64,000 nucleotides of DNA from an uncultured bacterium (GCA_964387845.1 CAYLXA010000003.1:32001-96000); one strand, 5' to 3'; shown: positions 28,119 to 63,358, counted from the stretch's first letter. Notes: generated from the sequence alone by a model not told the origin. Made by a program: numbers and translations.

Positions 28119-28170
28119 ATTTCAAATATCAAAACGAGTTTTTGAATTTTGATATTTTAATTTTGAATTT
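28105..28170. repeat. AT-rich palindromic repeat, family B copy 1 (tcaaatatcaaaac...ttttgatattt)
   Basis: Inverted repeat in 50-nt nuoF/nuoE spacer; same motif recurs at 61939..61996 and 63277..63358. Confidence 0.7.
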
Positions 28171-28663: not shown

Positions 28664-28738
28664 GCTGCAAGCTACAGGCTACAAGCTTCAAGCTTAATCA
28701 ATTGAAGCCTGAAGCTTGTGGCTTGCGGCCTGAAGCTG
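28664..28738. repeat. GC-richer palindromic repeat, family A full copy (gctacaagcttcaagc - loop - gaagcctgaagcttg)
   Basis: About 75-nt hairpin in nuoE/nuoD spacer; its two arms match the half-elements at 807..848 and 1218..1262. Confidence 0.75.
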
Positions 28739-31964: not shown

Positions 31965-32048
31965 AGTCAGCGTACAGCGGACAGCGTATAGCGTTCAGGA
32001 TCAGGTTCGATTAACTTTACCTGACCGCTGAGCGCTGCACGCTGAACG

Positions 32049-32699: not shown

Positions 32700-32798
32700 A
32701 GCAGAACATCATAATATGTGAAGGATTTACGGTCAATAAGGCGGCAAATGGGCAGAAAAAAACCGCCCCGTTTAAGCTAAAAACAGGGCGGTTTTTTG

Positions 32799-33824: not shown

Positions 33825-33887
33825 CTTAAAAGAACTATCGGCAAAAGAAGAAAAGGAGTTAAGAAAGGGATTTCGAGAAGAAATAAA

Positions 33888-33925
33888 AAAGGCAGCTTAT
33901 TGAAAGCTGCCTTTTTTATTGTTAC
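33888..33925. terminator. Bidirectional rho-independent terminator (aaaaaaggcagctt-attg-aaagctgcctttttt)
   Basis: GC stem flanked by A-tract and T-tract seen directly in sequence. Confidence 0.7.
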
Positions 33926-37111: not shown

Positions 37112-37127
37112 TGGACGCGTATTATAT

Positions 37128-37262
37128 CAGTATCTGGTATCTCGTATCTAGTATCTAGTCCACCGCACCTCCTCACCCTATCCCTCTCCCCCTCTAAGGG
37201 GGAGAGGGTAAAGGAGAGGGGGTTTGTAAAACGAGATACTAGATACCAGATACTAAATACGG
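37128..37262. repeat. Long imperfect palindrome (family D) with polypurine/polypyrimidine core
   Basis: agtatctggtatctcgtatctagtatctagt ... ccctctccccctctaagggggagagggtaaaggagaggggg ... cgagatactagataccagatactaaatac. Confidence 0.7.
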
Positions 37263-37265
37263 AAG

Positions 37266-42668: not shown

Positions 42669-42727
42669 TAGTGGTAAGTGATAAGTTGGTCGATTAACTT
42701 ATCACTTATGACTTAGCACTTACCACT
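42669..42727. repeat. Palindromic repeat, family C copy 2 (agtggtaagtgataagtt ... aacttatcacttatgacttagcacttaccact)
   Basis: Shares ggtaagtg/gataagtt words with copy 1; immediately downstream of giant ORF stop. Confidence 0.65.
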
Positions 42728-45700: not shown

Positions 45701-48700
45701 CAATCGTTCCGCCGGCATTTAAGATTGAAACGCCGGACAATTCTTTCTGAAGTTCTGCAATACTTTGCCCGCTGCGCAATTCGGATCTCACGTTTTCTTC
45801 AACCGGCTCTTCGGCATTCGGCTCATCGAGCTGTTTCAAGACGCGGTTTGTGGTAGCAATCGAATCTTCAAAAACGCCCAGCTCTTCCTTCGCTTTTTTC
45901 AATTCTAATAATTCCCTTGCCTGATCTTCAGGAAGTTCGACAATCCGGTCTTTGATTTCCAAAATCTTTTCAAGTCTGTCCGGACTAACGCCCAGCGCTT
46001 TCCTTAAAAATGCGGAATCTTTTAAATAATCAAAGAGCTTTTCGACCGCTTTGGCCATATCAAAAGGAGGAAGGATTTTGATGTATTGATCAATGTCGGG
46101 TGTTTTGTTTTCCCATGCATCTTTCAAGATCGTCACATTCTGGACTATTTTTTTCTTCGTTCCCTTTCCTCCCTTCACCGGAGCATCCACAATCTTGGGT
46201 GCCAATTCGATGCCGGTTAAACGAGCTATTTCCGGCATCCTGGATTCTTTGTTATAAAGCTCTTTTCTAACCCGGTAAGGCAGCCGCATAACCAGATCTG
46301 CATGAATACGAGCTCTTAATAGTGCTTTATACTCAGGGCTTCCGAATTCAATCGGTTTTTCGGGTTCAGGCTCTTGCGTGACAGAGGAATTTTCGAATGA
46401 ATCGACTAATGGGGTTTTTCCTATGATCGCCCGGGGTATCTCCAAACGCCTATTCGTTACCGCTGCCTGGCGAGCGTTTTTAGGTAAAAATTTATCGGCG
46501 AAATGCGGCGGATACGGATCCGCATTAAGTTCTAGAACCGTTTCGCGCCTAATCCCATAAATTAAATCTGAAGTCACATTCAATATTCTCGCCAACTTGC
46601 CCACTAATCTAGTAACTTCGGTGAATTTGACTTGTTTACTCCCGGAAAGCACTGCGTGAACATGCCCATAGGTTTCTTGTATTTGATTAAAAAGCTCGCT
46701 GGTAGTGATATGAGTAATGCCTCTTGCTTCAACAATGATTCTAATTCTGTCCCAATATGTCAAACTTGGATCAAACAAAGATTCGATAATGGCTGGCGTA
46801 AGAGCATAAATCGTCCATTGATCAACCGGAGATGCTCTTTCAATTTCCGAGACAAATGGTGGTTGCTGTTCTGGTTGGGGCGCTTCGGAAGCAGTTTCTG
46901 GAGTACTATCAATGTTTTTTAGCATTTCCGACAATCTAAGCGGCAACATTTCTTCTGCAGTTTCTTCTATCGTACCCGTCAGGGGTTGTTCTTCTGTTTC
47001 TGAGGGTTTAGCTTCAGTCAAAACTTCTTGTTTTACCAACTCAAGTTCTTGCTCGGTAGTCAAACCCAATCGTATGGAAAACTGTTCAAAGAGCATGATT
47101 TCTGGCCCTAAGATCCTTCTGATTTCTTTACCCTCTTCGCTTTCAGGAGTGTGGAGCAATTGTGCAAACTCCAAAGTATCTACTAACACTTCCCGGCTGG
47201 CAATACGCGGCCCCCCAAATGCGGGGTTGGTCGGCGGTACAAACAATAAACCTCGGTCAATCATATGCTGCAATGCTTCACCCATACGGGCTCCGCCGAT
47301 CGTGGTACCGAGCCGCGGATGCCAAACGACGTCCTGCGATTGGCCTTCCGATTTCGTATAAATTTCTTCCCAAAGAATCAATGCAATCAAGAGAGGCGCC
47401 ATTATCCTGCCTTTGTTCGGCCCGCTTTTGTATTTGAAAAGAACGTCGGGATCCTTCAGTAAAGTATCGGGAAGCAGATATTCTTTCACTGAAAATTTCA
47501 AATATTCTTTCAATGCGGCTTGATCCACGGAAAGATTTTCAAACGGTTGGTCTGGATTTCTGTTTAAGATTGCTTCTTCAATTTTTTTGCGAACCTCCGC
47601 ACCCATTTCATGATCAACTTCGAGCTGATTTTTGCTGTTAAACAATGATTCAAAATCCAACCCCACATGATTCGTGTATTCAGACATAGCTTCTACTTGC
47701 CATGGCTCTAGCTTTTCTGAAAGCCATTCGTGCACTTGCCCTACTCGAATGGTAACGTCCCGGTATTTTTCATCAGAATAAATTTGGTCAACTAATTTGC
47801 TAATTTCTTGAGGGTCTTCTTCTTTGATTGTCTTGAAAAATAAGTTTTCAAGATCGGCATCTCCCGTCAAATGATGAAGCAGCATATACCGAAGAATTGT
47901 TTTTTGCGTATTGCCTGCAAACCGCATTCCTCTCACAGTATCTGAATCCCTCATCTTAGTAATCGCTTTCATGGAGGAGCGCCGGATATTACCATGCATG
48001 CGCTCGACTGCCTGGCGATTAAGTCCGAAAATCAAATAAAGATCGATGATCATAAGCTGGGTTTCAACTGGAAGAGCTCCGCTTTGCTCGAAGCTTCTCT
48101 CAACAGCTTTATCAATCAATCCAATTTGACCTTCAATCAACAAATGTGTACGCCGGCTCGAATCCATCATCGATTTCAAAAGCTTCAATCGGTGGCCTTC
48201 GGCTAACGCTAAATCACGAAATTCGATCTGAAGCGTTGTGCTGCGATTCATTTCTATCTGGCGTGAAAAAACTTTGTCCAGTTTTTCAAACGCTTTTTCC
48301 AAGTCTATCTTTGCCTGGCCGATCAACTCTTCCGCAAGCTCCGGTTCGACTTGATCCACCAAGTGATCGGCTTGGTTTAGTTTTGCTTTTGCCTGGCCTA
48401 AATAATATTTAAACCATTGCTTATAAACTTGGGTTGAAATGTCTTCATAGATAGAACGTAAACGCCAATAAGCTTCTCCCCATTTGCTGGATGTTTGGCT
48501 CTCTTTAAATGAATCATCGTCCAAGAATGTTTTTACGGTTACGGCAACCTTCATCATGGTTTCGTAAAATAAATTAATTCTTGCTTGTTGAATGGAAATA
48601 TCCGATGCGCCGGATAGTGACTTGAAGTCTTTGTGCAAACGCCCGTAAACAGGAGATGTTCTGCTTTCAAAAAATATAGACTCTTTATTTTTAATATCCA

Positions 48701-51700
48701 AAAGAGAAAGCAAAACATCCAACTTTTTTAAGACGGTGTTGAGATGTCTGTTTTGAAGAATGGGCGGGATTCTGGCCGTTAAAGCATGGGCGCCTTCCAA
48801 CCATGAATAAAACGCATTCCGCTCATCAGAAGTTCCCATTAAATCGATAAATTCATCTAATTCCTTTTTTAACTTTACCAAGCTATCAAAGTGGCGAACC
48901 AGGTCGGAATTCTTCAAATCCGAAAGAAATGCATCTAGAAAAGCAGATGATTGAGACGCTATTTTCAACTGCTCTTCAAGTTTCGCCCGGCTTTCGGCAG
49001 TATTTTCGGAGGCCAATGCAGTCAAGGCAGTTTGGCGTAAAGCAGAAATGGATTCTACCTCGATAAACTTTTTGGCCAACTCGTCAATTTTCTGGATTCT
49101 CTGAATAATTTTTTCACTGCGGGTTTTCCGAACAAAAGAAACGGTTTCATTTTCATTTGATTTAACAATCAAATTTAAAATTAACGGCAGGGCTTCCTTT
49201 CTGAAGAATTTGCCCACGATTTTCCGGATCTCATCCAGTTTTTCTGACCGTCCTTTTTCCGGATTATTGGCAAGTTGATTAATGCTCAAAATTCCTTCGT
49301 CAACTTCAAGAAGCCACGAAAATACAGTTTCTATTTCACTTGCGGTGCCTAGATCAGAAATAAATTTTTCAAACCGGCTTTGGATTTCTCTCAGTTTGTG
49401 ATAAGCATCCCTGTTCTCACTTTCGGTAAGACCGTCAAATATTTTTTTCAGAATTTCAAAAGATTTTCTTGCTTCCGATCCAATATTTTTAAGATCTTCA
49501 AACCCTGCAAACGCCGTTTCGATGTCGAATTCCCCGTCACTTGAAGCAGGAATTAATTTGGATAAAACAAATGAGTCTAGATCGGAAAACCATGCGTCTG
49601 AAAAAAATGCTGCATATTGGGGCGCTGCGGCCGCATAAGTAGTTTTGCTGCGTGTGATTTGAGACAGTAATAAATTCCCGCGGCTATTCGCTGATTTCCA
49701 GCTGTTCATATTCATGCTTTCAAGCGAACGCAATTCTGATTTCTTGCTTTCAGCCGCATTCAACGTTTCGGCAATGAACGTTTTCATTACGCGATAGACA
49801 TATTCGGTTTGCTCTTGGGTAGGTTCGCTATTAAGAAAACGATCATAGAATTTGGCGGGATCCGAACCGCGCGGGTAAGCCTGTGAATAAGACAAAAGCC
49901 AGGCGCCAATAATAGATTGTCTAAACGTTGGAAGAGGAAGTTTTTTTAATTGTACGCCGCGGAGGCCGATGTTGACGAAAATAGCCGGCACATTTGCATC
50001 AAATTCTTTCCAACGGCGAAGGCGATGAATCGGCGCAAACCGGTCAAGCTCGCCCTTCCAAGGAATATAATCAATCTTCAAATCCTGCCCGTCGACCGTA
50101 ATTTTTTTCAAATCTTTGAGCAATTCCATAGCTTTAGAAGTGGCAATAATGCGGATCGGAGCGCGCGTTTCGCGAGGGCGTCTTTCCATAAACGTGATAT
50201 GCCAATCCATCATAAACGGAATATCGGGAAATTTTTGATGCAGGACCTGCATGAATTTTTCTCCGATTGGCGCCGGAATAGATTCAAAATTAGGCTGTGA
50301 ATCCGGTTTAATCTCGGCTATCAATTCTTCCGAAAATGCAGCCAACATTTTTTTGAATAACTTGTCCCGCTCTCCATGAAATTCGAGACGTTTTTGAAAA
50401 TCTGCGGCGCCTGCCGACATTTTTCGTTTCGTGCTCAAGCGCCGCTTTTTTCTTTCAGAAGGCCAATCTTTTTCTGCGTCATTTGTGATACGCTTTTGAA
50501 CAATATGCAGCAAGCGACTATTGATTTCATTACCGATTAAACCTTCCCGATCGGAAGCTTTGCTGAAATGAAAGTCGATCAAATTTAAACTGCTCTGGTC
50601 ATCACTTGTTTCAATTGCACGATCAATATCTTCTATCACTTTTTCCAATGTTTCAACAAACCACCGTTCTTTATCTTTGGAATATCGCTTTGACGCGGCC
50701 CCGTGCTCAAAAATTCTTCTCCCTTCTCTTCTATAAGCTTCGAGCATCCGCATAACACCCCGGTAAATCAAGTTGGTCTCGCCGACCGGCGTAAAAGACG
50801 ATCTCCACCTGCCGATTGCAGCATACCCGCCAAATTCTTGTTTCAAATCACGAATCATTGCTGCCGTGCGCTCCAAAGGATAATCACGATCAGTCAAGAT
50901 AAGCGGTGCTGTTCCTTCGGAGGATTTGACCGATTCCAGCAATTGAATTGCAGAACCAATGCTTTCCGGGAACAAATCTTCCGGAGCAAGCAGGCCCAGC
51001 TCAAACATGATTTGATTAAAAATGGTGCGCTGAGGGCCTCTCAGGCCTTTTATCCATGGATCTTTTTCGTAAATGGGCCGGATGCTTTTTGCGGTGATAT
51101 TGCCGTCTTCATCGCGATATTGATTGAATATATCGTTTTCGATTAAATATTCGATCGTGTTGTTTAAATAATCATACTGACGTAGCGTATCGGTCCATAA
51201 CAATAGAAGAAAAACAAGTTCGGGAGCCGGTTTTTGAAAGGGCATGAGCTGCTCGATTAATTCGTCGGATTCAAGAACTTTTCGGTAATAATCGACTAAA
51301 TTTTCAAATTTGGGATCTTTTATTTTATATTCTCCGCGATCAAACTTGCGAATAACTCTCCTAAGCACTATTCGAACGTCGTGCTTGAGCAGGGCTTCAT
51401 ACGCATACAACACACGTGATATTTTGTTGTCATAATCCCACGACGGATTTTTAGCAAAATCACTCTCGATCGCGATAAGGGTCCTAGCAATCAAACTTGC
51501 TGCATACATATTAGACCCCGGCAGCGGGTTGCCATACATGAGATCGGTTACATTTGGATGGACAATGTTTCCTGCGCGATCTGTCTCATCATTGGAAACA
51601 ACTTCATTGGGGAACACCTGATCCATAATAGCTTCACGGCTTCGAGTCCTCCGGTATTCTTCCCGTGCCCATTCTAAACGTTTTTTAAGTTGCCACCCTT

Positions 51701-54700
51701 TCGACCCTATTCCCAAAACAGACAACAACATCGCAATTGCATAATCCCGATAACCGACGTTTCCGACCATTTCAAACCGCAGCCTTGGATTGATTGCACG
51801 ATTCAGCCGGCGTACTACTTTTCGAAGAGAATGTTCATTTGCGTATTGAAACGCCGGAATTTTAAGTGCGATCGTGCTTGGAAGGCCCGCCTTCTCTTTA
51901 ATAGCACGCTCGTAATGATTTTCTTGCTCGTTTTCCGCTAATCCTGATAAAGCATGAAATATTTTCCTTTCGGCAGAATCCTCAGACTCCAAATAAGCAT
52001 GCCAAGCACGAGATTCAAATCGCCCCCACAAGTTTCCAAGTCCATGAAATTGGCTTTGAAATGCAAAAACCTGGCTTGCGCTCGCCATTTTATTTAGATG
52101 ATAACTGGCTTCGACAAGTTGACGATAAATATCGGGCAGGCCTTTTGAAGGCGTCATTTTGTACCGTTCTAGAGTTTCAAATGCGGCGTTCTTATGATAA
52201 TCAAAATAGAATTCGTGAATGCTTATGATTAACTCTCTGGTTTTTTCTTTAAAAACATCAATGGCGTGCGATTTCCCAAGCCCCATTGCGAGATCATAAA
52301 ACGATTGGAAGTACCGCGATAACCCCTCTGAGACTGCAAACCGGAGTCTCGCGTCGGTCTTGGATTTTTCGAGCAACGTATTTGTTATATCGCGAACAGG
52401 TTCAAAGAACACTTCCAACTTTGATTCGACGTTACTCTTTTTATTTCTTTTTGTACTGCCCTTTTTGATGTTGGCTGTCGCCAAACTAATTAAAAATTCT
52501 TGTGCGGTCTTTTGAGAAAAAGAATTGATGATGTGTTCCCACAAAAATATTGGTACTTTGATTTTAGATTTTGCACTCTGCACTAAATCTAAAAACATCC
52601 TTTCGGTCATTCTTTTATGATTGAAATTTTTTACGGGCAATACACGCACGCCGGGAATCGACTGAATTAAGAAATAGCTTTCTCTTTGGTCCTTATCTCC
52701 GCTTGTTTCTAACTTGCGGCTCGTAATGAGTTTGACTCTCGCAATAATTTTTAAGTCTGTTTGTTCTCCTCCGCGTGCAATCAAGAAACCATCTTCACGG
52801 CTTGGATTTAGTTTTATATCAAATTTTAAATCGTTTTGATTCTTTTCGCCGATGATCTGTTGGATTTTGTCCAAATCTTTCTGCCGATGCCATGCGGATC
52901 TGATTCCGACAAGAGAACCGCCCACCGATTCAACTCGCACTCTTGATATTTGTTTAGGGACAGATTCAACACGAATATGCATTGATTCGGTATTGCCATC
53001 CTCGTCAAAAACAACTGTAAATGTGCGACCGTGGCCAACTGAAACTAACTGCCGACCCACAAATCTTTTGGTACCAATCCGCTTCGCTTGAGAGATCAAT
53101 GCATCATCCGATCTGAGTTCAGACTTTTTTGTGGCCTGTCTTATTTCAAAATACTGCTGATAAAGTTCCTGAAAACTCGGCGTTTCCTGGATTTCAAGTT
53201 CGATTTCTCTAGCCATGTCCACTGCAGTGTCATTCAGAATATTTTCGTATGCACCAGCATCATAAGCTTTCTGTGAATCCTTACCGATTTCGTCCAGCCA
53301 TTTCCTCTCTGCCGGAATCCAGTCTTTATAATCATAAAAAATACTTTCGACATCCTCATAGGCCGTGAAGCGGATTAATTGTTTAAGAATAGCTAAAACC
53401 GCAGGGCTTACCGCAACGCTAATTGGAACATTGGCGTATTTACCTTTCATGTAGATTAAAAACAGCATGAACCGCCGCCAGCCAGCCATTTCGCCGCAGA
53501 TACTGACTTCCAACCCTGCCGCGCTCGCATGCTCAATGATTGTTTCGATCTTTTCAAGAAATGTGGAAAGCAATTCTGTGTACAATCTTCCGCCATATTC
53601 ACGGTCCCGGCCGAATGTTTGTTGCAATAAATCATTGGTGCCGATAGAAATAAAATCGACGTATTTCTTCTGTGCGATCACCGGAAGATTTTCAATGGCT
53701 TTGTTGGTTTCGATCATAATTCCGAACGGAATTTTGATCCGGAAGCGATTAAGATCGTGACGAAATTTTTCTAACTCCTGATCAAAGATAGTCCGGACAA
53801 ATATTACGTCATCCTCAGTTTGAACCATCGGTACAAATACTTTGACCGCAGATTCTCTTCCGGTTTCTCCTTCGGCGTGAAAATGCTCTGCAGCCATAAT
53901 GCTCGCGCGAATTGCCGCTCGAATTTGAGCTCTCAAGATCGGTTCGCCTTCCGTAGGATCCCTGTAAAGATCGAACCCGATTTTTGTATTCGTTTCTGAA
54001 ATGGCTGAAACAGGCTTGTCCAGCTGACGGTCTAACGTTCTTACCGCAAATGCGCCACGTAAGATAATCCTGCCCTGAGATAATATTTGAGTAAGATCGT
54101 CTTCATATTCTTTTATATTTGCTTCCCAGGATTCGTGGCGGTAGAAATGCGTAGGGAAATTGACTTCGGTTCGATAGAGCCGCACACCATCCGTATCTGC
54201 GGAAAGCTCTTGAATATGTTCAAGCGCATCCGCACTTCCGCTAACTTCCATCAACAGTGAAGCAACGCTGTCTTTCTTTGCAAACACAGGTTCTAGTGCG
54301 AGGGTTTTTGCCAATTGCAAATACGCTTCTTCCTTGACGATTTTCTGTTCATATTCGGCAGCATCTTTTTGTGAAGGATTGGCATGCAGCATTCCGTTTT
54401 CCCCGTCCGCATAAATGATTTGCCCTGACTTGATATCTGCAAACTTACCTAGTTTGGCCTTGAGCGCGGTAAGAACTAAGATCCCGTAATTAGCGCCGAC
54501 AATAACCCAATGTTCGGTGGGAGATCCAAACTCGGCTACAACCGCACCCAAATTTGGGTAAGCTTTTTTTAGACTTAAGAGAGTCGGCGCATTCATCGCT
54601 CCTGCCAAATACGGCTGTTCTTTTGAGACTTTTAAAATAACCACCAAATGATCAACTTTATCCGTCGTAAATTGCTGATCCGACACCAATTGCCGCGCCA

Positions 54701-57700
54701 TTTTTTCGTTTAGAATCAAAACTGCGTCTTTTAAAAGAACTAAAATATTTAGCAGCGTTTTCTCCTGAAGATCGGATGTGTCTTCAGAACTCATCTTGGT
54801 GCCGATATCCAAAATCAACTTTTGATAAGCATATTGGAGCGCAACATCAGGATACACATTTTTTGTATTGATTAACCAGCTGGTTTCTTCTTGAAATCGA
54901 TCAAGAAGCTCTTGAAATGAATACTTATCCGGCATGTTGTCGACAGGCGCTTGATCAACTAATTGGTCAGCCGCTGATTGAAATGCGCTTGCTATTTGAT
55001 CGTTGTATTCTTTGATTTTCTCTTGATAGAGTTCCTCGGACATTCCTTCCATTTTAAAAGACTCGCCATAGCTCAAAAAACTCATCATCCGGTAGAGCGT
55101 GGAAAGGATTTCCCTATTTCGAGCCTTGATCTGTTTTTCTTCATCCGTGCCCTCGGTTCCCTTGAGAGATTCGATGGCATTATGGATATCTTTAACAATT
55201 CTAGGAATTGGCTGGCCGGCTTTTTCAAGCTGTGTATAAGCATTGGGGTGCGCATACAACTTAAACGCATCGAAATATGAGATTTTTTTGTCCTTCAAAG
55301 ATTCCATCACTAATTTTATTGAATCGGTGTTATATTTAAAAAATTGCCATGTGATTTCTAATGCTTTTGCATCACGCAGACGCCCTTTTTGCTTTAGATC
55401 CCGAATTCTAATTTGAAAATCGAAATTAAAAATATCTAGAATCGCTTTAAAATGTTGCACATCACGTTCGGCAGCTTCAGGGCTAAGAATGGCAGGCTGT
55501 TTAAATTTGCTGCTAAATTTTTCCAAACTCTCTCCTAGCGCTCTGCTCGACCACAAATAGTAAATCTGAAAACCAACGCTATTCACTTTTGATTTAATTT
55601 CTTCTTCAAGAAGATGATCCGCTCTTTTCCCTTCGCTTTCTATTTTTTCCAGAACAGAATCTTTCAATTCGTCTAAAACTTGCAGTAAATTTTTGTTCGA
55701 TTGGTCTTCTTCCAAAATCATCCTGTCTATCTTTTCTGAAAATTTTACCTTTTCGATTCTTATCTTTTCTTGAACATCTGGTTCTTCATCCAAATTCGAT
55801 CTCAACGAATAAGCAGCTGTAAAAAAGTCGTCTGCCTGGAAAAGCATCGTGGTGCCTCGAAATACACGCCGGGCCTGATTTTTATTGCCCTGCATCAGAA
55901 CGGTTCGAAGTTCTGATCTTTTTTCCGATTCGCCTTCGGCATCACTTGTTTTGCTTTTGGATTTTTTCTCTTCGATCATTTCTTCAATGAGATCCAGCAG
56001 ATCTGTTAGTTGAGGGGGCAAAACTCCTTCGATTGCGTCCATGCTCAGCCCTGTATTCGCAATCACTCTTGCGATTATTTCGAGAGCGCTGTTTCCTGTA
56101 GAAACCGGATTTGCATTTATAATTGCCGCTATTTCCTCGTCATTTACTGATTCTTCTTTCGGGTCAAAATAAGAAGCGATTCCGGATTGCGCAGCAGGTT
56201 TTTCGGATTTGTTTTCTGCTGCTTGAGGTTGGGTTTGCGGCTCTGCCGGCTGTGCTGATTTGGCTTTTTCAATGACGAGTTGAAAAAAAGCGTCTCTCTG
56301 GTTTTGCTTTATCGATTTGAATTGATCATTTATAAACTTAGCGAAGGTCGATCCTGCTCTTAAGGGAAATTTATTCACGCTCGGATTCCCTTGTTTATAT
56401 TCGCTTGCCAATGCGCCACTCTTGTTAGCGTCTGTGATAATTGTCCGCTCAATTTCTGTTAGGTTGCCTTCCTTCCCCTCGGCAAGTTTCACAACGCCGG
56501 AAAAAAATGCTTCCACGTTTGCCTGCTGCGTCATATCTGCCGGAACTCCCGCCGCCCAATCGATCAATTTTTGGATTTGCGAATTGACAGCCCGCAATTC
56601 AGAACGATCGTTCTTCTCAGATTGTTGAGAAGGTTGTATAGAAACTGCATACGAGGCCAATTTCGAATCATCAAAATATGCCCTATCAATAAACTTTTCA
56701 AAAGTGGCTTGCCAACCGTCAGGGTTGTAGTAATACTCGGGCAACGATTTTCCTGATTTTGCTTGCACTTCGGATGCAAACCTGAGCAAAGCTTGTTGGA
56801 TAGGAACAAGAAACCGGTTATCAAAATTCTCCGCCGCTGTCCCCGGATTATTTTTGTTGATCAACGCACGCGTATATCCCAATTGCAGCGTCATTAGTTT
56901 CAAAATGTATCTTGATTTTTTCCAGTTCTTATCATTTGCGGCATCACGAAATCTCGATGAATCATAATGAAGGCGCGTTAATGTTGCCGCAAGTGATTCC
57001 GGATATTGATCCCTGGAGACATAGCGGACTTTAAGCCAATCAGATGCAACATCATCTAAAAATACCGAAACAACTCTGTGGGGAGTTTGTTCAATAACAA
57101 CCGACTCTGGATCCTTGAAACCAACCACCCCATTCTCATAAGCAAGATGGCCGACTTCGTGATACACATGATAATCGCTTACCCATTCAAATAACCGTGC
57201 CCTGTCTTCCTTATTTCCAATCTCACCGTGGTGGATAATTTGATGCTGGAGCATTGCCATTCTGAGTGAAATTCGGAGTCTGCGATAAGTTTCGTCATAA
57301 ATTAACGAAAATCCTGTATTGTCAGCCATAGATTCCGAATCTTTCATTTCAGCCGAAAAATTGATAGAGGGTGTCTCTAAAAATTTCTTCAACTCTGCCG
57401 GTAACTTTTCATAACTCTCAGAGGTTCGGCTTATCATCAAAAACGAATCCAAAATCTCTTCCATACTTAAATTGAGCTTCTTGAGTTCGCGATAAATCAT
57501 GATTAGCATAGAAAAAATATTTTGGCTTAATTTGTCAGGAAATTTACTTGTTGAAGATGGGATATAAAGGAATGATGATTGACCGCCTCGATAGGCCGAA
57601 ATAATAACATCAATTGGCCTTGCAAAAAGCCATCTTGAAAAGTAAATAAGCATCACTTGTGTAAGTTTTTTGATTTGAGACAGGTTGGGAAATTCTGGTT

Positions 57701-59243
57701 GTAAACGCAATTCCGATCTGTGTGAAATTGGATCTGCAGAATTAAAATATTCCTGCGGATTAAAATCCGAATTAAAAACTTGAAGCGGATTTGAGATGGC
57801 GGAAGATTTTAGAAACTCTTCGAACTTGGGTTTTAGTTTCTCAAAAGTTGGTGTTTCACCGTTCATGCGTTCGTAATAGCGGTCGTAATCCGTTTCCGGA
57901 GAAACTTGCGGCGAAATCAAAACAAACGGAATGTTTTCCTTTCGGAATTTTTCGGTTAGGTCTTCGGCATGAAAACCGCCGGTGACGAGGATAATGCCGG
58001 AGCCCGGCGGTAAAGGGTAAGCGTTAGGCGTTAAGTCTGACTTATCGCTTAACGCGTAACGCTTAACGCTATTTAAGAATGCTTCATCGCGTCTTTTGCT
58101 GGTGGTATAAAACTGTTCAGCAACATTGAGTTTTTTCGGATCTAGTTTTCCTTTGAGAAATTTTGTAATTTCTTTTTTGTGCTGTTGGTAAAATAGAAAG
58201 TCTTCCGGAGTTGCCTGCAGCGAAACGAGCGCTTTAACGGATTTTAAATATTCGCCTTCTTCATGAAGCCCTTCCTCACCTTTTCCGGAAAACAAACGCT
58301 CACGGACACGGTCTTTGAAAAGACTAATTTCACGAAACAAATTTACAGCACCGATTTCGCGGCTGATTCTTTCAAATTCTTTCTTCTCATCTATTTTTTC
58401 GCCGGCTTTCACACCCGTTAAACTGCGCTCCAATAGAACAAGCGATATTAATTTCTCAATCTCATACAAATCCGAGCGCTTGACGCCTTCGTTGCGCCCA
58501 ATATTCGCTAAATGAGAGATCAGCGAAATTAATTCGCCGCGCTGTTCGTATAAGCCCGTTTTTGTTTCGAATTCGAGCAAGCGCTTGTTGTACGTTTTCT
58601 CTTTCGCTTCCTGATTTTCTTTAAAAAGAAAATGGACGGCGGGCAAAAGTTCTTTTTGCACTTCAAGTGCTTTTAAAAATTCCTTCCGGTTTGAATCATA
58701 AAGTGCCGCATCTTCGGCCCCGATTAACTCATAGGACTTGGGGTTTAAAACGGCTTCTGCTTCAATGCCGGTTAAAATAACCTGCTCAAGCCAAAATCGG
58801 GTGGCGAGTTCTTTTACTTTTTGGTTAGGATAATTACGAAATCTGAAAAGATCTGCAGTGCCGGATGCGCCCTCGGCTAAAATCGTGCGGACGCCGAATT
58901 TTTCCGATATAAGCCTTGCGATCTTCTGAATATTCTGCTGAGCGCCCAGGTTTGCGTGAGCATCTTGGATGTAAAAAACTATAGGGGCAAGGGTCATGGG
59001 TCCAGGGTCAAGGTTCGTTCCTTGACCCTTGCTACTTGCTACTTGACCCTTCGGAATAAAGACTTCCGAGACACGCCCCAGAGCTTCTGGAATTAAATTT
59101 CCAAAATCCTGTTGATTAGATATGGGTCTTTGGTAATCAAGAGGCGCTGCATGAGAGATGTCTGCCCAGATAAACGCCACGATTAGGACAAACGCAATAA
59201 TGCGGAGAGCCGGAGAATATTTTTTGTTTTGGGGGAAAAACAA
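42732..59243 (-). CDS. Giant multidomain protein (5,503 aa) with N-terminal signal anchor, HExxH, PEP-utilising-enzyme-like and asparaginase-like modules, nine [RK]SELR motifs
   Basis: Single uninterrupted 16,512-nt ORF; TTG start preceded by GAGGTG; hydrophobic segment LRIIAFVLIVAFIWADISHA; YHVYHEVGHLAYENG; DGVRLYRTEVNF / FISIGTNDLLQQTFGRDREYGG / SICGEMAG; LNAGGTIDM / ILTHGTDTLAETG. Confidence 0.85.
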   Translation of the reverse strand: MFFPQNKKYSPALRIIAFVLIVAFIWADISHAAPLDYQRPISNQQDFGNLIPEALGRVSEVFIPKGQVASSKGQGTNLDPGPMTLAPIVFYIQDAHANLGAQQNIQKIARLISEKFGVRTILAEGASGTADLFRFRNYPNQKVKELATRFWLEQVILTGIEAEAVLNPKSYELIGAEDAALYDSNRKEFLKALEVQKELLPAVHFLFKENQEAKEKTYNKRLLEFETKTGLYEQRGELISLISHLANIGRNEGVKRSDLYEIEKLISLVLLERSLTGVKAGEKIDEKKEFERISREIGAVNLFREISLFKDRVRERLFSGKGEEGLHEEGEYLKSVKALVSLQATPEDFLFYQQHKKEITKFLKGKLDPKKLNVAEQFYTTSKRRDEAFLNSVKRYALSDKSDLTPNAYPLPPGSGIILVTGGFHAEDLTEKFRKENIPFVLISPQVSPETDYDRYYERMNGETPTFEKLKPKFEEFLKSSAISNPLQVFNSDFNPQEYFNSADPISHRSELRLQPEFPNLSQIKKLTQVMLIYFSRWLFARPIDVIISAYRGGQSSFLYIPSSTSKFPDKLSQNIFSMLIMIYRELKKLNLSMEEILDSFLMISRTSESYEKLPAELKKFLETPSINFSAEMKDSESMADNTGFSLIYDETYRRLRISLRMAMLQHQIIHHGEIGNKEDRARLFEWVSDYHVYHEVGHLAYENGVVGFKDPESVVIEQTPHRVVSVFLDDVASDWLKVRYVSRDQYPESLAATLTRLHYDSSRFRDAANDKNWKKSRYILKLMTLQLGYTRALINKNNPGTAAENFDNRFLVPIQQALLRFASEVQAKSGKSLPEYYYNPDGWQATFEKFIDRAYFDDSKLASYAVSIQPSQQSEKNDRSELRAVNSQIQKLIDWAAGVPADMTQQANVEAFFSGVVKLAEGKEGNLTEIERTIITDANKSGALASEYKQGNPSVNKFPLRAGSTFAKFINDQFKSIKQNQRDAFFQLVIEKAKSAQPAEPQTQPQAAENKSEKPAAQSGIASYFDPKEESVNDEEIAAIINANPVSTGNSALEIIARVIANTGLSMDAIEGVLPPQLTDLLDLIEEMIEEKKSKSKTSDAEGESEKRSELRTVLMQGNKNQARRVFRGTTMLFQADDFFTAAYSLRSNLDEEPDVQEKIRIEKVKFSEKIDRMILEEDQSNKNLLQVLDELKDSVLEKIESEGKRADHLLEEEIKSKVNSVGFQIYYLWSSRALGESLEKFSSKFKQPAILSPEAAERDVQHFKAILDIFNFDFQIRIRDLKQKGRLRDAKALEITWQFFKYNTDSIKLVMESLKDKKISYFDAFKLYAHPNAYTQLEKAGQPIPRIVKDIHNAIESLKGTEGTDEEKQIKARNREILSTLYRMMSFLSYGESFKMEGMSEELYQEKIKEYNDQIASAFQSAADQLVDQAPVDNMPDKYSFQELLDRFQEETSWLINTKNVYPDVALQYAYQKLILDIGTKMSSEDTSDLQEKTLLNILVLLKDAVLILNEKMARQLVSDQQFTTDKVDHLVVILKVSKEQPYLAGAMNAPTLLSLKKAYPNLGAVVAEFGSPTEHWVIVGANYGILVLTALKAKLGKFADIKSGQIIYADGENGMLHANPSQKDAAEYEQKIVKEEAYLQLAKTLALEPVFAKKDSVASLLMEVSGSADALEHIQELSADTDGVRLYRTEVNFPTHFYRHESWEANIKEYEDDLTQILSQGRIILRGAFAVRTLDRQLDKPVSAISETNTKIGFDLYRDPTEGEPILRAQIRAAIRASIMAAEHFHAEGETGRESAVKVFVPMVQTEDDVIFVRTIFDQELEKFRHDLNRFRIKIPFGIMIETNKAIENLPVIAQKKYVDFISIGTNDLLQQTFGRDREYGGRLYTELLSTFLEKIETIIEHASAAGLEVSICGEMAGWRRFMLFLIYMKGKYANVPISVAVSPAVLAILKQLIRFTAYEDVESIFYDYKDWIPAERKWLDEIGKDSQKAYDAGAYENILNDTAVDMAREIELEIQETPSFQELYQQYFEIRQATKKSELRSDDALISQAKRIGTKRFVGRQLVSVGHGRTFTVVFDEDGNTESMHIRVESVPKQISRVRVESVGGSLVGIRSAWHRQKDLDKIQQIIGEKNQNDLKFDIKLNPSREDGFLIARGGEQTDLKIIARVKLITSRKLETSGDKDQRESYFLIQSIPGVRVLPVKNFNHKRMTERMFLDLVQSAKSKIKVPIFLWEHIINSFSQKTAQEFLISLATANIKKGSTKRNKKSNVESKLEVFFEPVRDITNTLLEKSKTDARLRFAVSEGLSRYFQSFYDLAMGLGKSHAIDVFKEKTRELIISIHEFYFDYHKNAAFETLERYKMTPSKGLPDIYRQLVEASYHLNKMASASQVFAFQSQFHGLGNLWGRFESRAWHAYLESEDSAERKIFHALSGLAENEQENHYERAIKEKAGLPSTIALKIPAFQYANEHSLRKVVRRLNRAINPRLRFEMVGNVGYRDYAIAMLLSVLGIGSKGWQLKKRLEWAREEYRRTRSREAIMDQVFPNEVVSNDETDRAGNIVHPNVTDLMYGNPLPGSNMYAASLIARTLIAIESDFAKNPSWDYDNKISRVLYAYEALLKHDVRIVLRRVIRKFDRGEYKIKDPKFENLVDYYRKVLESDELIEQLMPFQKPAPELVFLLLLWTDTLRQYDYLNNTIEYLIENDIFNQYRDEDGNITAKSIRPIYEKDPWIKGLRGPQRTIFNQIMFELGLLAPEDLFPESIGSAIQLLESVKSSEGTAPLILTDRDYPLERTAAMIRDLKQEFGGYAAIGRWRSSFTPVGETNLIYRGVMRMLEAYRREGRRIFEHGAASKRYSKDKERWFVETLEKVIEDIDRAIETSDDQSSLNLIDFHFSKASDREGLIGNEINSRLLHIVQKRITNDAEKDWPSERKKRRLSTKRKMSAGAADFQKRLEFHGERDKLFKKMLAAFSEELIAEIKPDSQPNFESIPAPIGEKFMQVLHQKFPDIPFMMDWHITFMERRPRETRAPIRIIATSKAMELLKDLKKITVDGQDLKIDYIPWKGELDRFAPIHRLRRWKEFDANVPAIFVNIGLRGVQLKKLPLPTFRQSIIGAWLLSYSQAYPRGSDPAKFYDRFLNSEPTQEQTEYVYRVMKTFIAETLNAAESKKSELRSLESMNMNSWKSANSRGNLLLSQITRSKTTYAAAAPQYAAFFSDAWFSDLDSFVLSKLIPASSDGEFDIETAFAGFEDLKNIGSEARKSFEILKKIFDGLTESENRDAYHKLREIQSRFEKFISDLGTASEIETVFSWLLEVDEGILSINQLANNPEKGRSEKLDEIRKIVGKFFRKEALPLILNLIVKSNENETVSFVRKTRSEKIIQRIQKIDELAKKFIEVESISALRQTALTALASENTAESRAKLEEQLKIASQSSAFLDAFLSDLKNSDLVRHFDSLVKLKKELDEFIDLMGTSDERNAFYSWLEGAHALTARIPPILQNRHLNTVLKKLDVLLSLLDIKNKESIFFESRTSPVYGRLHKDFKSLSGASDISIQQARINLFYETMMKVAVTVKTFLDDDSFKESQTSSKWGEAYWRLRSIYEDISTQVYKQWFKYYLGQAKAKLNQADHLVDQVEPELAEELIGQAKIDLEKAFEKLDKVFSRQIEMNRSTTLQIEFRDLALAEGHRLKLLKSMMDSSRRTHLLIEGQIGLIDKAVERSFEQSGALPVETQLMIIDLYLIFGLNRQAVERMHGNIRRSSMKAITKMRDSDTVRGMRFAGNTQKTILRYMLLHHLTGDADLENLFFKTIKEEDPQEISKLVDQIYSDEKYRDVTIRVGQVHEWLSEKLEPWQVEAMSEYTNHVGLDFESLFNSKNQLEVDHEMGAEVRKKIEEAILNRNPDQPFENLSVDQAALKEYLKFSVKEYLLPDTLLKDPDVLFKYKSGPNKGRIMAPLLIALILWEEIYTKSEGQSQDVVWHPRLGTTIGGARMGEALQHMIDRGLLFVPPTNPAFGGPRIASREVLVDTLEFAQLLHTPESEEGKEIRRILGPEIMLFEQFSIRLGLTTEQELELVKQEVLTEAKPSETEEQPLTGTIEETAEEMLPLRLSEMLKNIDSTPETASEAPQPEQQPPFVSEIERASPVDQWTIYALTPAIIESLFDPSLTYWDRIRIIVEARGITHITTSELFNQIQETYGHVHAVLSGSKQVKFTEVTRLVGKLARILNVTSDLIYGIRRETVLELNADPYPPHFADKFLPKNARQAAVTNRRLEIPRAIIGKTPLVDSFENSSVTQEPEPEKPIEFGSPEYKALLRARIHADLVMRLPYRVRKELYNKESRMPEIARLTGIELAPKIVDAPVKGGKGTKKKIVQNVTILKDAWENKTPDIDQYIKILPPFDMAKAVEKLFDYLKDSAFLRKALGVSPDRLEKILEIKDRIVELPEDQARELLELKKAKEELGVFEDSIATTNRVLKQLDEPNAEEPVEENVRSELRSGQSIAELQKELSGVSILNAGGTIDMIGEFARKTVDAVRVLLTHLKNTVFYKSVFDKNPDSTNIGPKEWEKIIDHIKDEISRKTTLAEEIKVSQREMGGIILTHGTDTLAETGLVLSLEFDGSLPTRIVLTGSSTVNEKEKILNLKAAEEVAKRTDIPNLVYVVIDSQIYLGSLISKIRTDSSSKGSLFASYGKAIGAVDSKGNISFDMDFLQTVSSKLANLEKQPKFHKNEEFGYVEHLLIDETTPALVLFQAGNRIERHAEQAGVRAGLVIQGDFSKNPEIEYIRATIQSLKRKKIPVVSNVSQSGAINIPYHMTFSKARTKLSWLLRAGVSFESLERELKRDFMGEAGGLWGRTDIPDWAQEKFQPNSFRQGREIVLAFPGIIPEVFIDASNRLLISGDSNKKELLVREFGDGNVPLENRSIQDILLTYLTRHHPDLADASFYELPFIDPEKDMDLERRLRQKISELSKDERIQISNLYQIENPRLLTNQLISEATKGQKFSNDAQRVLKIQEFIQENFPAWPRFGEVKTTDELIRILDEKFSDLTFLEQEEFFLKFPKYLARWIIKDALTNANPILKVISEIEDKSVQVKILTNAVFGRTNLQTYELGNMLMAVGADGQKSRGWKSALVRKDESRSELRTSDEALIEHIRNEFKDHFESRLDNSSFHLEHAVLNHAAGLHEGPSRILLGLTLPLIEAGVRYWIGEENNPANHFSSRITATTLFTIYETPIAIYLEAPKRLGITQAQLEAATKVIKEYLEDERVGDEVEQEADAARSHPDELEDFPEGAYRTQYLDRLKAVFGETQESRSELRREANQASIPSNVKGNIVISFEELKNRSELREAILADMSANPGSKIEFSVVASEFDNTFVAERAVEELFPNADIFGKQSGQRSRLQLYTRERLSVGRELSADQAYNILIDRLKHELNAKGDTTRIVAIGEHDLFSKLTRRDIPKVLGRPGAVEAAQLLIAHNDSFNFRSLGDVIDPSSEFISSLMHTLFSRAVLGKAA

Positions 59244-59265
59244 CCGCGCACCTCAAGATAAATTT

Positions 59266-59291
59266 AATAACCACAACTGCTAGTGGTTATT
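59266..59291. promoter_or_regulatory. Perfect palindrome aataaccac-N8-gtggttatt between putative -10 and RBS of giant gene (candidate operator)
   Basis: 9-nt arms; lies between the giant-gene TTG start (GAGGTG RBS) and candidate sigma-70-like -35 TTGAAA / -10 TAAACT elements read on the minus strand at about 59300..59328. Confidence 0.35.
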
Positions 59292-59391
59292 AGTACCAAA
59301 GTTTATCTTAAAGTACCGGATATTTCAAGTTTATAACCGTTAATTTATTAGACTGTATAATAAAGATACAATTTTATCTGTAAAATATAGT

Positions 59392-60693
59392 CTATTTCGG
59401 GTCATTTAAGTTGATTTGATTAGATTGACACACTTTTGAATAATAACGGGCACTTTCGCGGATCCGGCGCTCTTGTGTCGTATAGTTCACATCGATCAAA
59501 CCAAAGCGCGGCCCGAAGCCATAAGCCCATTCAAAATTATCCAAAAGTGACCAATACAAATAACCGATTACCGGCACCTTTTTTTCGATAGCGCGCGAAA
59601 CTTCGACTAAATTGCGGTGAATAAAGAATTTCCTTTGCGTGTCATCATCCGTGCAAATTCCATTTTCCGTAACGATGACGGGAACTTCATAGCGCTTCAG
59701 CTGCAGCAGGATATCGAATAACCCTTTCGGATAAATTTCCCAACCCATTTTGTTCCGAGGGCCTGAAGATTCATGATGTTTAATCGAGCAGACATCCCCG
59801 AAAATTTCGGGGAAACCGAAACCGGCAAAGTGAACATAATCACGTGTGTAATAGTTAAGCCCCAGAAAATCAAAACTTTTCGGCAATGCAAGCGGCTCGC
59901 AATAAACCCCCGGGATAAATAAAAATCCGCGGTAAAGCGCGTCTGAGAACAAATGATTAAACATTTCGTTCCGGAGCCATGCGGATAACTTGTCGAACAT
60001 GGATTGAGGCCTGCACGGCGTCGCTACCATCATGTGCTGCGCAAAACCAACCTGCGGTTTTTTCATGCCGCGGCCTTTGGATGCTTCGTGAATTATTTTG
60101 TACGCACGCACATGCGCCAGCAGAAAATGTTTGAGGACTTTCAGCGCATTCCGGGATGAACGGCCTCCCGGCGGCCACTCACCGGTGATGTAGCTTAGAT
60201 AAATGTAAACCATCGGTTCGTTAATCGTAACCCAGTAAGTCACGTCTTTTCCGAATGCATGCACGCACCGCTTCACATATTCGCCGAAATAATCGACGGA
60301 ACGCGGATTCGTCCAGTCACCGATTTTGGAAAACCAGGTGGGATTCGTAAAATGATGCAGCGTCACGACGGGTTCGATGCCGCGGTCTTTGAGCGCTTTA
60401 ATCACTTGCGCATAGTGCGCAAATTCGGATTGATTCCAGTGGTGACGGGCAGGCTGCAGGCGGCTCCATTCGATAGAAAACCGGTGCGCATTGTGAGAAA
60501 TCTCTTTCGCCAGATCGAAATCGGATTCGAAGCGTGCGTAATGATCGCAGGCATCCAGCGAACGGGTTTTAACTTTATGCTCTTTTTCCCATTGCCACCA
60601 GTCGTTCAGGGTGTTATTGCCCTCAACCTGATGGGAAGAAGTGGCGGCGCCCCAGAGGAAATTTTTTGGAAATGTATAAACGTTTTCAGACAT
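59392..60693 (-). CDS. GH1-family beta-glucosidase
   Basis: 433 aa; catalytic NEP (YWVTINEP) and TENG (VIVTENGICT) motifs. Confidence 0.9.
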   Translation of the reverse strand: MSENVYTFPKNFLWGAATSSHQVEGNNTLNDWWQWEKEHKVKTRSLDACDHYARFESDFDLAKEISHNAHRFSIEWSRLQPARHHWNQSEFAHYAQVIKALKDRGIEPVVTLHHFTNPTWFSKIGDWTNPRSVDYFGEYVKRCVHAFGKDVTYWVTINEPMVYIYLSYITGEWPPGGRSSRNALKVLKHFLLAHVRAYKIIHEASKGRGMKKPQVGFAQHMMVATPCRPQSMFDKLSAWLRNEMFNHLFSDALYRGFLFIPGVYCEPLALPKSFDFLGLNYYTRDYVHFAGFGFPEIFGDVCSIKHHESSGPRNKMGWEIYPKGLFDILLQLKRYEVPVIVTENGICTDDDTQRKFFIHRNLVEVSRAIEKKVPVIGYLYWSLLDNFEWAYGFGPRFGLIDVNYTTQERRIRESARYYSKVCQSNQINLNDPK

Positions 60694-60760: not shown

Positions 60761-61108
60761 TTACCGGCTATGGCGGGCGTCTTCAATGCGCTGTTTCAGC
60801 ATGGTGTCGCTCGTCTGAAACTCTTCAAGCCGTTTGAGCCGTTGGATGCGGAAGTCTTCTAACAACTTGTCTTTCTCTTCCTGGCTGATCTCTGACCCCA
60901 TCTGTGCATGGACTTCTTTGCCTTCGTCGTACAATTCATCCAAAAACGATTTCCGGAGCTGGTCTTGTTCGGTTAACAGATCCTGAACTTCCTTTGGCTC
61001 CTGATTTCTGGGAACCGGCGCCGCATTTTCGGCCAAAAGAGGCGCGGGTAGCAAAAGGGCCGAAACAATCCATAGAACACTGATTTGCCTGAGGGTTATT
61101 TTTTTCAT
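60761..61108 (-). CDS. Small periplasmic coiled-coil protein
   Basis: 115 aa; signal peptide; E/K/Q-rich helical region. Confidence 0.35.
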   Translation of the reverse strand: MKKITLRQISVLWIVSALLLPAPLLAENAAPVPRNQEPKEVQDLLTEQDQLRKSFLDELYDEGKEVHAQMGSEISQEEKDKLLEDFRIQRLKRLEEFQTSDTMLKQRIEDARHSR

Positions 61109-61938: not shown

Positions 61939-61996
61939 ATTAAAATCTCAAATATCAAACTGGAAATATGATTTTGAATTTTGATATTTGAATTTA
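61939..61996. repeat. AT-rich palindromic repeat, family B copy 2
   Basis: tctcaaatatcaaactggaaatatgattttgaattttgatatttga between convergent plsC and zinc-ribbon gene. Confidence 0.7.
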
Positions 61997-63274
61997 TATT
62001 AATTTTTTAATGACGGCTTCTTTTTGCCGTGCATCATCCGCCAACTCCGGTGGAAATTGCACTTTCTCAAGCGCCAAAAGCGCTTCCTGCCATTTTTTAT
62101 CCCGGATTGCCGCGATGGCTTTACTATATTCTTCCTGAATAACGCGCAAACTGGCCGGCAAATTTTGGCTCAAAACCTTTTTCTTGATCCGCAGGTCGGC
62201 CGCAACCGATGTCAGCTTCACCGAAACCGGCTCAAGTAATTCGTCTTGAATATCAATGCCGCGCCTAATATCGGAATCGATTTGTGCAACTTCAGGCGGA
62301 TAGTCGATTTGCACTTGCTTGGCTACATTGTTCGTGAGTTCAATATCTCTTTCGAGGGATTCCGCAAGCTGAAACGCCTCTTCTATTTTGTTGTCTTTCA
62401 CCAAATCAAACAATGTTCCATATTTTGTTTCCACCGGTTGCATGGAATTTCGGACACGCGCCATCAATAAATGCATATTGAGCTGGTGAATTTTGCCGAG
62501 CACATCATTGATATACGGCTGAAGCATCACCAGCGCTACGGCTTTGTGATGCAAAGGATTATTCGAATAAACCGGAAAAACGAGCGACTGAATAAACTCA
62601 TACCGAGCGGTTTCGTAATCATTTTTGGCAAGCGCTTCACCGGCCTTTAAATAATGCTCCTTGAAAAGCTGGATTAATTTGCGCTCATAGCCCCAACTAA
62701 AATAGATGCCTCTTGCTTTTTGCTGTTTCACCAAAAAAGCTTCAAAATCATCCTGTGTCCACATTTTTGACAGTTGGGGCTTTTCGGTTTGAAAAGGAAA
62801 ATCAACCCGTTGATTAAAAATTTGAAGCTCATCTTGCCCGAATGGCCGCGGAATCTCTAATTTGACTTCGCGCGCAAGAATTTGGGCTTCCGCATCGCTC
62901 AAAACAGGTTCTGCAGGCATCTCGGAAACAGGCGTCTTTTGCACATCCGGCTTCGGTTTGTCTTCTTCGGACAAACGGGTTTTCACATTGTCTACAATGC
63001 CGGAGGTTTGCTGTACGATGCTTTTTAAAACCCAAACAGCCGCAATAATAATTACGAGTGCTGTAATGATTTTGAAAATTTTTGGAGAAATATTCGGAGA
63101 TTTCAGCTTAGGCAGAGGCGGTTTTATGTCTTTTGTAAGATCAACTTTCTTGGGCGAATCCGGCTCACCCACCAAATGAACCGAAGTTGTCCAAAAACAG
63201 GACGGGCAGCGCTGGACAATCGTTTCGGGCGCATCAAATTTTTTACCGCAGTGTTCGCAATAATATTGAGCCAT
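61994..63274 (-). CDS. Zinc-ribbon-anchored bitopic membrane protein, function unknown
   Basis: 426 aa; N-terminal CEHCGKKF...CPSCFW zinc ribbon, TM IFKIITALVIIIAAVWVL, large helical C-terminal domain. Confidence 0.45.
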   Translation of the reverse strand: MAQYYCEHCGKKFDAPETIVQRCPSCFWTTSVHLVGEPDSPKKVDLTKDIKPPLPKLKSPNISPKIFKIITALVIIIAAVWVLKSIVQQTSGIVDNVKTRLSEEDKPKPDVQKTPVSEMPAEPVLSDAEAQILAREVKLEIPRPFGQDELQIFNQRVDFPFQTEKPQLSKMWTQDDFEAFLVKQQKARGIYFSWGYERKLIQLFKEHYLKAGEALAKNDYETARYEFIQSLVFPVYSNNPLHHKAVALVMLQPYINDVLGKIHQLNMHLLMARVRNSMQPVETKYGTLFDLVKDNKIEEAFQLAESLERDIELTNNVAKQVQIDYPPEVAQIDSDIRRGIDIQDELLEPVSVKLTSVAADLRIKKKVLSQNLPASLRVIQEEYSKAIAAIRDKKWQEALLALEKVQFPPELADDARQKEAVIKKLI

Positions 63275-63276
63275 AA

Positions 63277-63358
63277 AATCAAATTCAAAATCTAAATTTC
63301 AAATATCAAAACTGAAAATACGGTTGTTTTGAATTTTGATATTTGAGATTTGAAATTA
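63277..63358. repeat. AT-rich palindromic repeat, family B copy 3
   Basis: aatttcaaatatcaaaac-N-gttttgaattttgatatttgagatttgaaatt, near-perfect about 30-nt arms. Confidence 0.75.

Follow-up and report, generated by a model that had tools for sequence, protein, structure and literature searches.

The 148-nucleotide (nt) spacer that separates a giant open reading frame (ORF) from the GH1 glycosidase gene upstream of it, in a 64,000-nt stretch of DNA from an uncultured bacterium (GCA_964387845.1 CAYLXA010000003.1:32001-96000, hereafter the window), contains a perfect palindrome whose role is probably that of a hairpin, most likely one formed in the RNA, rather than that of an operator. The giant ORF occupies positions 42732-59243 of the minus strand and encodes 5,503 amino acids (aa) in a 16.5-kb gene, the spacer covers 59244-59391, and the coordinates of all spacer elements given below refer to the minus strand. 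The leader elements in this spacer are under purifying selection, and the apical stem formed by the palindrome covaries. The palindrome is itself nested in an imperfect inverted repeat of about 90 nt (59326-59237), overlooked in the first-pass annotation of this DNA, whose complementarity would occlude the Shine-Dalgarno (SD) sequence of the giant gene, is statistically unusual and favours the sense strand.

The spacer was compared among syntenic loci of uncultured Omnitrophota (L125, L126, L127, L128/L129, L130/L131, L132, L141 and L142), Candidatus Omnitrophota being the source of the nearest named homologues. The GH1 protein was used as the anchor for locating these loci because orthologues of the giant protein with 46–63% identity are evidently missing from the protein database; a homologue search returned GH1 relatives with 97, 83, 82, 66, 62 and 58–59% identity. 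At four-fold degenerate sites of the GH1 gene the window and L125 are 73% identical, corresponding to 27% neutral divergence, and the window, L126 and L127 are 31–39% identical to one another, indicating saturation. Conservation of the spacer among these last three therefore reflects selection.

The palindrome that had been reported at 59266-59291 is exact, and proved to be one pair longer than noted, a 10+10 bp dyad at 59265-59292 (TAATAACCAC-TAGCAGTT-GTGGTTATTA) with an 8-nt loop and a predicted RNA fold of -12.4 kcal/mol (z -3.9). Six loci in the 64 kb carry perfect inverted repeats with arms of 10 bp or more and 3–12 nt loops, against about 1.1 in simulated sequence, and the number expected by chance in the 148-nt spacer is only ~0.003–0.014, so that a palindrome in this position is unlikely to be fortuitous. 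As described earlier, it lies between the candidate -10 hexamer and the ribosome-binding site, and the dyad begins 7 nt after that hexamer in the window, L126 and L127 alike. The stems of the three lineages are TAATAACCAC/GTGGTTATTA with a loop of 8 nt in the window, TAGTAGGTT/AATCTACTA with a loop of 9 nt and one G-U pair in L126, and TAATAGTCT/AGACTACTA with a loop of 7 nt and one A.C opposition in L127. Changes on both sides that keep the pairing were found at five of nine stem pairs (3, 6, 7, 8 and 9), while the flanks are invariant, and RNAalifold recovered the hairpin from an unguided alignment with four compensatory pairs. Between the window and L125 there are no differences in the 28 nt of the hairpin at 27% neutral divergence, an outcome with a probability of 0.73^28, or about 1.5e-4.

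The start region of the giant gene is also conserved. No other in-frame start codon comes between the TGA at 59255-59253, which is in frame, and the TTG start codon (59243-59241), and because this TGA sits inside the SD no longer reading frame is possible. The SD sequence, GAGGTG (59254-59249, read directly), is separated from TTG by 5 nt when counted from the hexamer and by 7 nt when counted from the GAGG core, the latter figure agreeing with the distance given before, and the coding strand of the spacer ends in ...TATCTTGAGGTGCGCGGTTG. On an identical public contig (Logan SRR15237813), an independent gene call for the 5,503-aa protein likewise starts at this TTG. The combination of GAGGTG and TTG is shared by the window, L126, L127, L132, L141 and L142, the SD being invariant in these six lineages; L125 also has the SD, on a contig that ends just before the start codon, and L128 alone deviates (AAGGAG...ATG). 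The TTG start and SD are thus the part of the first-pass annotation that the sequence supports well. An SD-like motif of any kind precedes only about 7 of the 41 genes in the window, and the GAGGTG of the giant gene is unusual for a genome that rarely uses SD sequences. As a separate observation, sigma-70-like hexamers end 8–12 nt before ATG in several genes (e.g., upstream of 32049-32699, 35552-37111 and 60761-61108), an arrangement suggesting that mRNAs with no leader or a very short one are frequent in this organism. The start region of the other orthologue clade reads GAGGTGAnATGnTTG (L132 4513-4527, L141 4600-4614, L142 3685-3699) and includes a conserved out-of-frame ATG 4 nt before TTG, absent from the window clade, that opens an ORF of 8–21 codons overlapping the start of the giant gene; this ATG may be a decoy start.

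Both the SD and TTG are contained in the 3' arm of the longer repeat, UUUAUCUUGAGGUGCGCGGUUGUUUU (59237-59262), which pairs with a 5' arm, GAAAUAUCCGGUACUUUAAGAUAAA (59302-59326), that overlaps the candidate -35 hexamer, spacer and -10 hexamer, and is nearly invariant in L126 and L127. Between the 5' arm and the apical hairpin lies an asymmetric 9-nt internal loop, CUUUGGUAC (59293-59301), unpaired in the folds and conserved as CTTTRGTWC, where transcription would be predicted to start if the promoter is real. The sense RNA of 59330-59232 (99 nt) folds into one long hairpin of -35.1 kcal/mol (z -6.1), compared with -22.2 kcal/mol (z -3.0) for the opposite strand, the sense strand being favoured because four of the pairs are G-U. 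When a sliding 99-nt segment was folded along both strands of the entire window, with correction for G+C content, this was the fifth most structured locus in the 64 kb, and the arm-arm duplex (-25.2 kcal/mol) ranked the 5' arm ninth among the 31,988 25-nt windows on the strand as a partner for the SD region. An equivalent helix with the same SD pairing is predicted in L126 (z -5.5) and L127 (z -2.9 to -3.8). The sequence opposite GAGGUG is UACUUU in the window and UAUUUU in L126 and L127, and the pairs are largely G-U. Two of the three types of substitution in the helix are C-to-U changes opposite G, by which the pair is kept; two-sided covariation is not seen in the outer helix because both arms are invariant. 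A search against Rfam 15 gave no gathering-level match in the window, and the best match in 59150-59450 (E 0.21), with bit scores far below gathering, is noise.

The 5' arm overlaps a promoter-like block. The earlier annotation had placed a sigma-70 promoter, TTGAAA-N17-TAAACT, about 60 nt upstream of the start; a sequence scan finds these hexamers at 59323-59328 (-35) and 59300-59305 (-10), 56 nt separating the end of the latter from TTG, and they match TTGACA/TATAAT at 9 of 12 positions. What stood is the presence of the hexamers and their conservation at identical spacing in the orthologues (TTGCAA-17-TAAAAT in L126, TTGAAA-17-TAAACT in L127); their agreement with the consensus did not stand out, as the scan gave three sites in 1 kb against 2.2 expected, a match not above chance. 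The substitutions fall at the least critical positions, and the critical ones (TTG of the -35 hexamer; T1, A2 and T6 of the -10 hexamer) are kept. A block of about 45 nt holding the hexamers, AAACTTGAAATATCCGGTAYTTTAAGATAAAMTTT, and a further block, TATCTTGAGGTG, are nearly invariant among the window, L126 and L127. Relative to L125, the segment 59344-59244 differs at only 2 of 101 positions, compared with 9 of the adjoining 47 nt after the GH1 stop (59345-59391), a value near neutral. A dedicated promoter at TTGAAA-17-TAAACT is thus plausible, and on balance we favour it, on the grounds of conservation and not of consensus match.

Other candidates in the spacer were considered and set aside. 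The variable segment 59345-59391 holds a non-conserved hairpin and the hexamers TTTACA-16-TATTAT (59384-59357), which score better than TTGAAA-17-TAAACT; they were rejected as a promoter, the -10 hexamer TATTAT becoming TTTTGC in L125. Inspection by eye led us to reject a sigma-54 promoter, there being no conserved GG/GC element in the spacer, and a leader peptide, there being no ATG or SD-preceded small ORF. A small conserved dyad, AGATAAAATTGTATCT (also written AGATAAAAnTGTATCT), lies at 59364-59379, about 70–85 nt upstream of the predicted transcription start; its arms are kept and its centre varies in L125 (AGATAAAACTGTATCT) and L126 (AGATAAAAGTGTATCT), its right arm is lost in L127, and no other close copy occurs in the window. 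It could be a protein-binding site. The AGATAAA/TTTATCT motif of this dyad recurs at 59303-59309 and 59256-59262, and was rejected as a repeated binding site since its frequency in the window is not significant.

In our best explanation the spacer is the dedicated expression region of the giant gene; the position of the transcription start, folding in vivo and any effects on mRNA stability and translation are inferred. A sigma-70-type promoter at TTGAAA-17-TAAACT would start transcription at about 59293, and the mRNA made from it would begin with the 10-bp apical hairpin, a 5'-terminal stem-loop that may protect it from 5'-end-dependent decay; if transcription starts 5–7 nt beyond the candidate -10, the predicted transcripts of the window, L126 and L127 all have the hairpin at their 5' end. 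Because they would start at about 59293, such transcripts would be without the 5' arm, and the GAGGTG SD and weak TTG would be left free. The promoter would sit inside the 5' arm of the longer helix (59326-59302 with 59262-59237), so any read-through transcript from GH1 would include the two arms, its SD and TTG would be buried, and the giant ORF on it would go untranslated. There is no conserved terminator after GH1 in the window clade, and the GH1 gene (59392-60693, minus strand; Pfam PF00232, E 4.6e-93) is a possible source of read-through. We hold this combined model, with a dedicated promoter inside the 5' arm of an SD-occluding helix and the palindrome as a leader hairpin, tentatively, and would give it somewhat less than an even chance.

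Several observations weigh against it. One substitution in L126 breaks a pair of the outer helix (A.C), the start codon is unpaired in the L127 fold, and each arm of the helix is under a separate constraint, one as promoter and the other as SD. Folding detected no significant leader structure in L128, L132 and L142, and the arrangement is therefore specific to the window clade. As regards the promoter, 32% of shuffled spacers contained at least one promoter match (18–50% over AT-rich spacers of this kind), the -10 hexamer TAAACT agrees with the consensus at only four of six positions, and the strong conservation of the 17-nt spacer exceeds what a promoter alone needs. As regards the apical hairpin, there are only three distinct hairpin sequences, so that the covariation rests on few independent events, and template switching can yield compensatory changes in DNA palindromes without selection on the RNA.

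Each component of the combined model has counterparts among characterized systems. Stem-loops at the 5' end stabilize the ompA, papA and aprE mRNAs, according to references 92-95 and 109 of PMC3997798. Like the leaders of ompA and papA in E. coli and of aprE in B. subtilis, this one would, if the candidate start is right, have a simple hairpin 0–5 nt from the 5' end, upstream of a free SD, and its structure is conserved and its sequence is not; it differs in that here the start is a prediction only, there is no sequence similarity, and the host is an uncultured member of the Omnitrophota with uncharacterised RNases. Leader helices that sequester the SD are described for IS10, IS3 and IS200 in PMC13181058 (citing Davis, Simons and Kleckner 1985) and PMC4513863. 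In the fold-back inhibition of IS10/Tn10, IS3 and IS200, as here, the SD and start codon have a complementary segment upstream, and the gene's own promoter, here a candidate one, lies inside or downstream of that segment, so that only read-through transcripts would be silenced. The present case differs in that a chromosomal 16.5-kb gene takes the place of the transposase, read-through would come from GH1, there is no homology, and the arrangement is known from sequence alone. FourU thermometers likewise pair a U-rich strand with the SD largely through G-U pairs, but the helix described here needs an upstream transcription start and has no Rfam thermometer match above noise. At -35 kcal/mol it is also much longer and more stable than the familiar thermometers.

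The comparison with fourU elements bears on the alternative that survives best, which is nonetheless unlikely: that the ~90-nt element is a single cis-regulatory RNA in a co-transcript of GH1 and the giant gene, with no internal promoter, in which the long helix buries the SD and TTG until it is opened or cleaved, for example by temperature (fourU-like), a protein, a small RNA or RNase III processing. A single structure would cover the invariant arms, the conserved 17-nt "spacer" and the freely covarying apical stem, and this explanation is also consistent with the sense-strand-specific G-U pairs, the UAYUUU opposite GAGGUG, the absence, in the window clade, of a conserved terminator separating GH1 from the giant gene, and the possibility that the hexamer matches are due to chance. 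The hexamers, however, have changed in a promoter-like manner, keeping TTG and TA...T, and no Rfam match was obtained. The related lineages are also informative. L132 has a terminator detected by the scan after GH1, with a G+C-rich stem and a T7 run, and a similar hairpin with T7 was recognized by eye after GH1 in L141 and L142, where the terminator scan left it unflagged; the giant gene in those lineages therefore has its own promoter, which counts against this alternative. All three of these lineages, which have a terminator-like site after GH1, lack the same long helix, L141 having an unrelated 13-bp G+C-rich leader hairpin, and the absence of the helix from L128, L132 and L142 counts against a single conserved RNA as well.

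It is very unlikely that the palindrome is a neutral or near-neutral palindromic insertion, the arms of which have been kept complementary by intrastrand template switching. Long hairpins abound in this genome, two of them being in-frame insertions in the giant ORF that the orthologues do not have, and leader hairpins are wholly different between clades. The alignment with L132 is also insertion-like: L132 reads AATATCCGG-AAT-GAGGTG, and in the window AATATCCGG is followed by 64 nt flanked by AAGATAAA/TTTATCTT and then by GAGGTG. Neutrality is hard to reconcile with the absence of any difference from L125 over the hairpin (0 of 28 nt, with the probability given above) and with the retention of a hairpin in this position by three lineages that are saturated at neutral sites, and the heptamer periodicity seen in other hairpins of the genome is missing from the palindrome.

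The first-pass annotation had read the palindrome as the operator of a dimeric repressor, placing the giant gene under dedicated transcriptional control, a proposal to which we now attach little credence. Relative to the start predicted for the candidate promoter, the perfect dyad spans roughly +1 to +28, which is the classic operator position, between -10 and ribosome-binding site as in operators of the lac O1 type, the orthologues keep the dyad symmetry, and the base of the stem, TAnTA/TAnTA, is conserved. Yet the half-sites (AATAACCAC, AGTAGGTT and AATAGTCT) differ between orthologues although their flanks are invariant, and a "symmetric" position is G.T in one orthologue and A.C in another. 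The loops of 8, 9 and 7 nt mean that the spacing of the half-sites is not fixed, differing by 1–3 bp, and variation in both sequence and spacing argues against a site read by a conserved dimeric repressor. A search for further copies of the palindrome, suggested as a check on the operator, found none in the 64-kb window at up to three mismatches. No DNA-binding regulator was seen in the conserved neighbourhood, where GH1 is accompanied by an acyltransferase, a response regulator consisting of a receiver only, and proteins of unknown function; in these respects, namely unconserved half-sites and spacing, no regulon copy and no cognate regulator nearby, the palindrome departs from operators of the lac O1 type. 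A scan of genome collections with the palindrome gave at least 119 matches in unrelated taxa, none from Omnitrophota among the matches listed, a result that says nothing about a regulon. On inspection these matches were rejected as unrelated hairpins, e.g., terminator-like AATAACCACCC-ATTC-GGGTGGTTATT stems, and only such unrelated hairpins were found among those listed.

Least credible of all is that the hairpin is the intrinsic terminator of GH1, the scenario that the earlier annotation had itself named as one that would overturn it, or an attenuator lowering read-through into the giant gene: it is the sole conserved hairpin in the spacer and is flagged by a simple scan (10 pairs, 3 G-C, tail AATTTATCTT), but it passes this loose scan only marginally (tail AAUUUAUCUU), its stem is AU-rich (3 of 10 pairs G-C) with two A residues before a broken U-rich tail and no adjacent U-tract, the U-run is 7 nt away from the hairpin in L127, the orthologous hairpins of L126 and L127 are unflagged, and its position, 100 nt from the GH1 stop, is on the downstream side of the conserved promoter-like block. 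The scan found no terminator-like site anywhere in the L126 and L127 spacers, and the window sites 33882-33920 and 32757-32797, like the L132 site after GH1, have G+C-rich stem cores and long T runs. The hairpin directly after the GH1 stop was also considered as a terminator and rejected, as it is not kept in L125 or L127.

Long hairpins of a different kind are a feature of this genome. In the intergenic regions between co-directional genes they occur at 37127-37263, 28664-28736, 31954-32073, 42670-42713, 28115-28166, 61941-61998 and 63294-63351, and at 303-377 of L126, with arms made of tandem heptamers (units such as GTATCTA, GCTTCAG/GCCACAA, AGCGnnC, nnTAAGT and AAATTTC/AAATATC). These heptamer-repeat hairpins are the most structured loci in the window. 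The orthologous spacer of L126 between the response regulator and the 426-aa protein has a different heptamer-periodic hairpin, with AAATCCT units. We know of no described family like them; they may serve as terminators or processing sites, or may be mobile palindromes. The giant ORF itself holds two in-frame palindromes with heptamer periodicity, at 58983-59050 and 58018-58065. The first coincides with a 13-aa insertion, GQGTNLDPGPMTL, lacking in all five orthologues compared, and the second with an insertion of about 15 aa lacking in L127, L128 and L141; hairpin elements therefore seem to insert in frame into linkers of the giant protein.

The order of genes across the syntenic loci is response regulator, 426-aa protein, acyltransferase (on the opposite strand), 115-aa protein, GH1 and giant gene. 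Alignments of the orthologous giant proteins (46–63% identity) begin at residue 1, and the N-terminus, MFFPQNKKYSPALRIIAFVLIVAFIWADISHA/AP, looks like a signal peptide. With the first 700 aa of the giant protein as query, only distant standalone proteins with at most 28% identity were found, and their contigs were rejected as a source of orthologous 5' regions. This N-terminal search missed the giant protein itself as well as the 46–63% orthologues present on public contigs; the database seems to lack products that are very long or truncated by the end of a contig, and a finding of "no close homologue" is unreliable for giant genes. In a metagenome scan with the conserved 20-mer TATCCGGTAYTTTAAGATAA, the only true orthologue was the L126 contig, the other seven matches being due to chance. 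Pfam matches in the giant protein (ORF 42732-59243) and its orthologues (L132, L141) include PEP-utilizers_C, HpcH_HpaI, Asparaginase, HAD and PseudoU_synth_2. At L123, a distant homologue of the N-terminus lies between a 23,525-aa ORF and a 1,716-aa protein with F_bP_aldolase, PFK and Gp_dh_C matches. Metabolic-enzyme domains are odd content for secreted giant proteins.

In kind, the element described here is an ordinary leader element in a new lineage, and not a new class of system. Text searches of accounts of Omnitrophota giant genes returned no mention of promoters, and start codons only in connection with rotating genomes to dnaA; as far as the searched text extends, descriptions of these genes have so far been confined to protein content and gene neighbourhood. 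The present locus offers a concrete, conserved and testable expression cassette, in which a promoter-like block and nested hairpins accompany a strong SD and a weak TTG start. It is conceivable, if doubtful, that an arrangement so far known from insertion sequences insulates the giant gene from its neighbour, guarding against accidental and costly synthesis, and that the apical hairpin stabilizes the 16.5-kb mRNA. If the nested-helix model is true, it would show how a cell limits the accidental synthesis of a 5,503-residue protein and stabilizes a very long mRNA.

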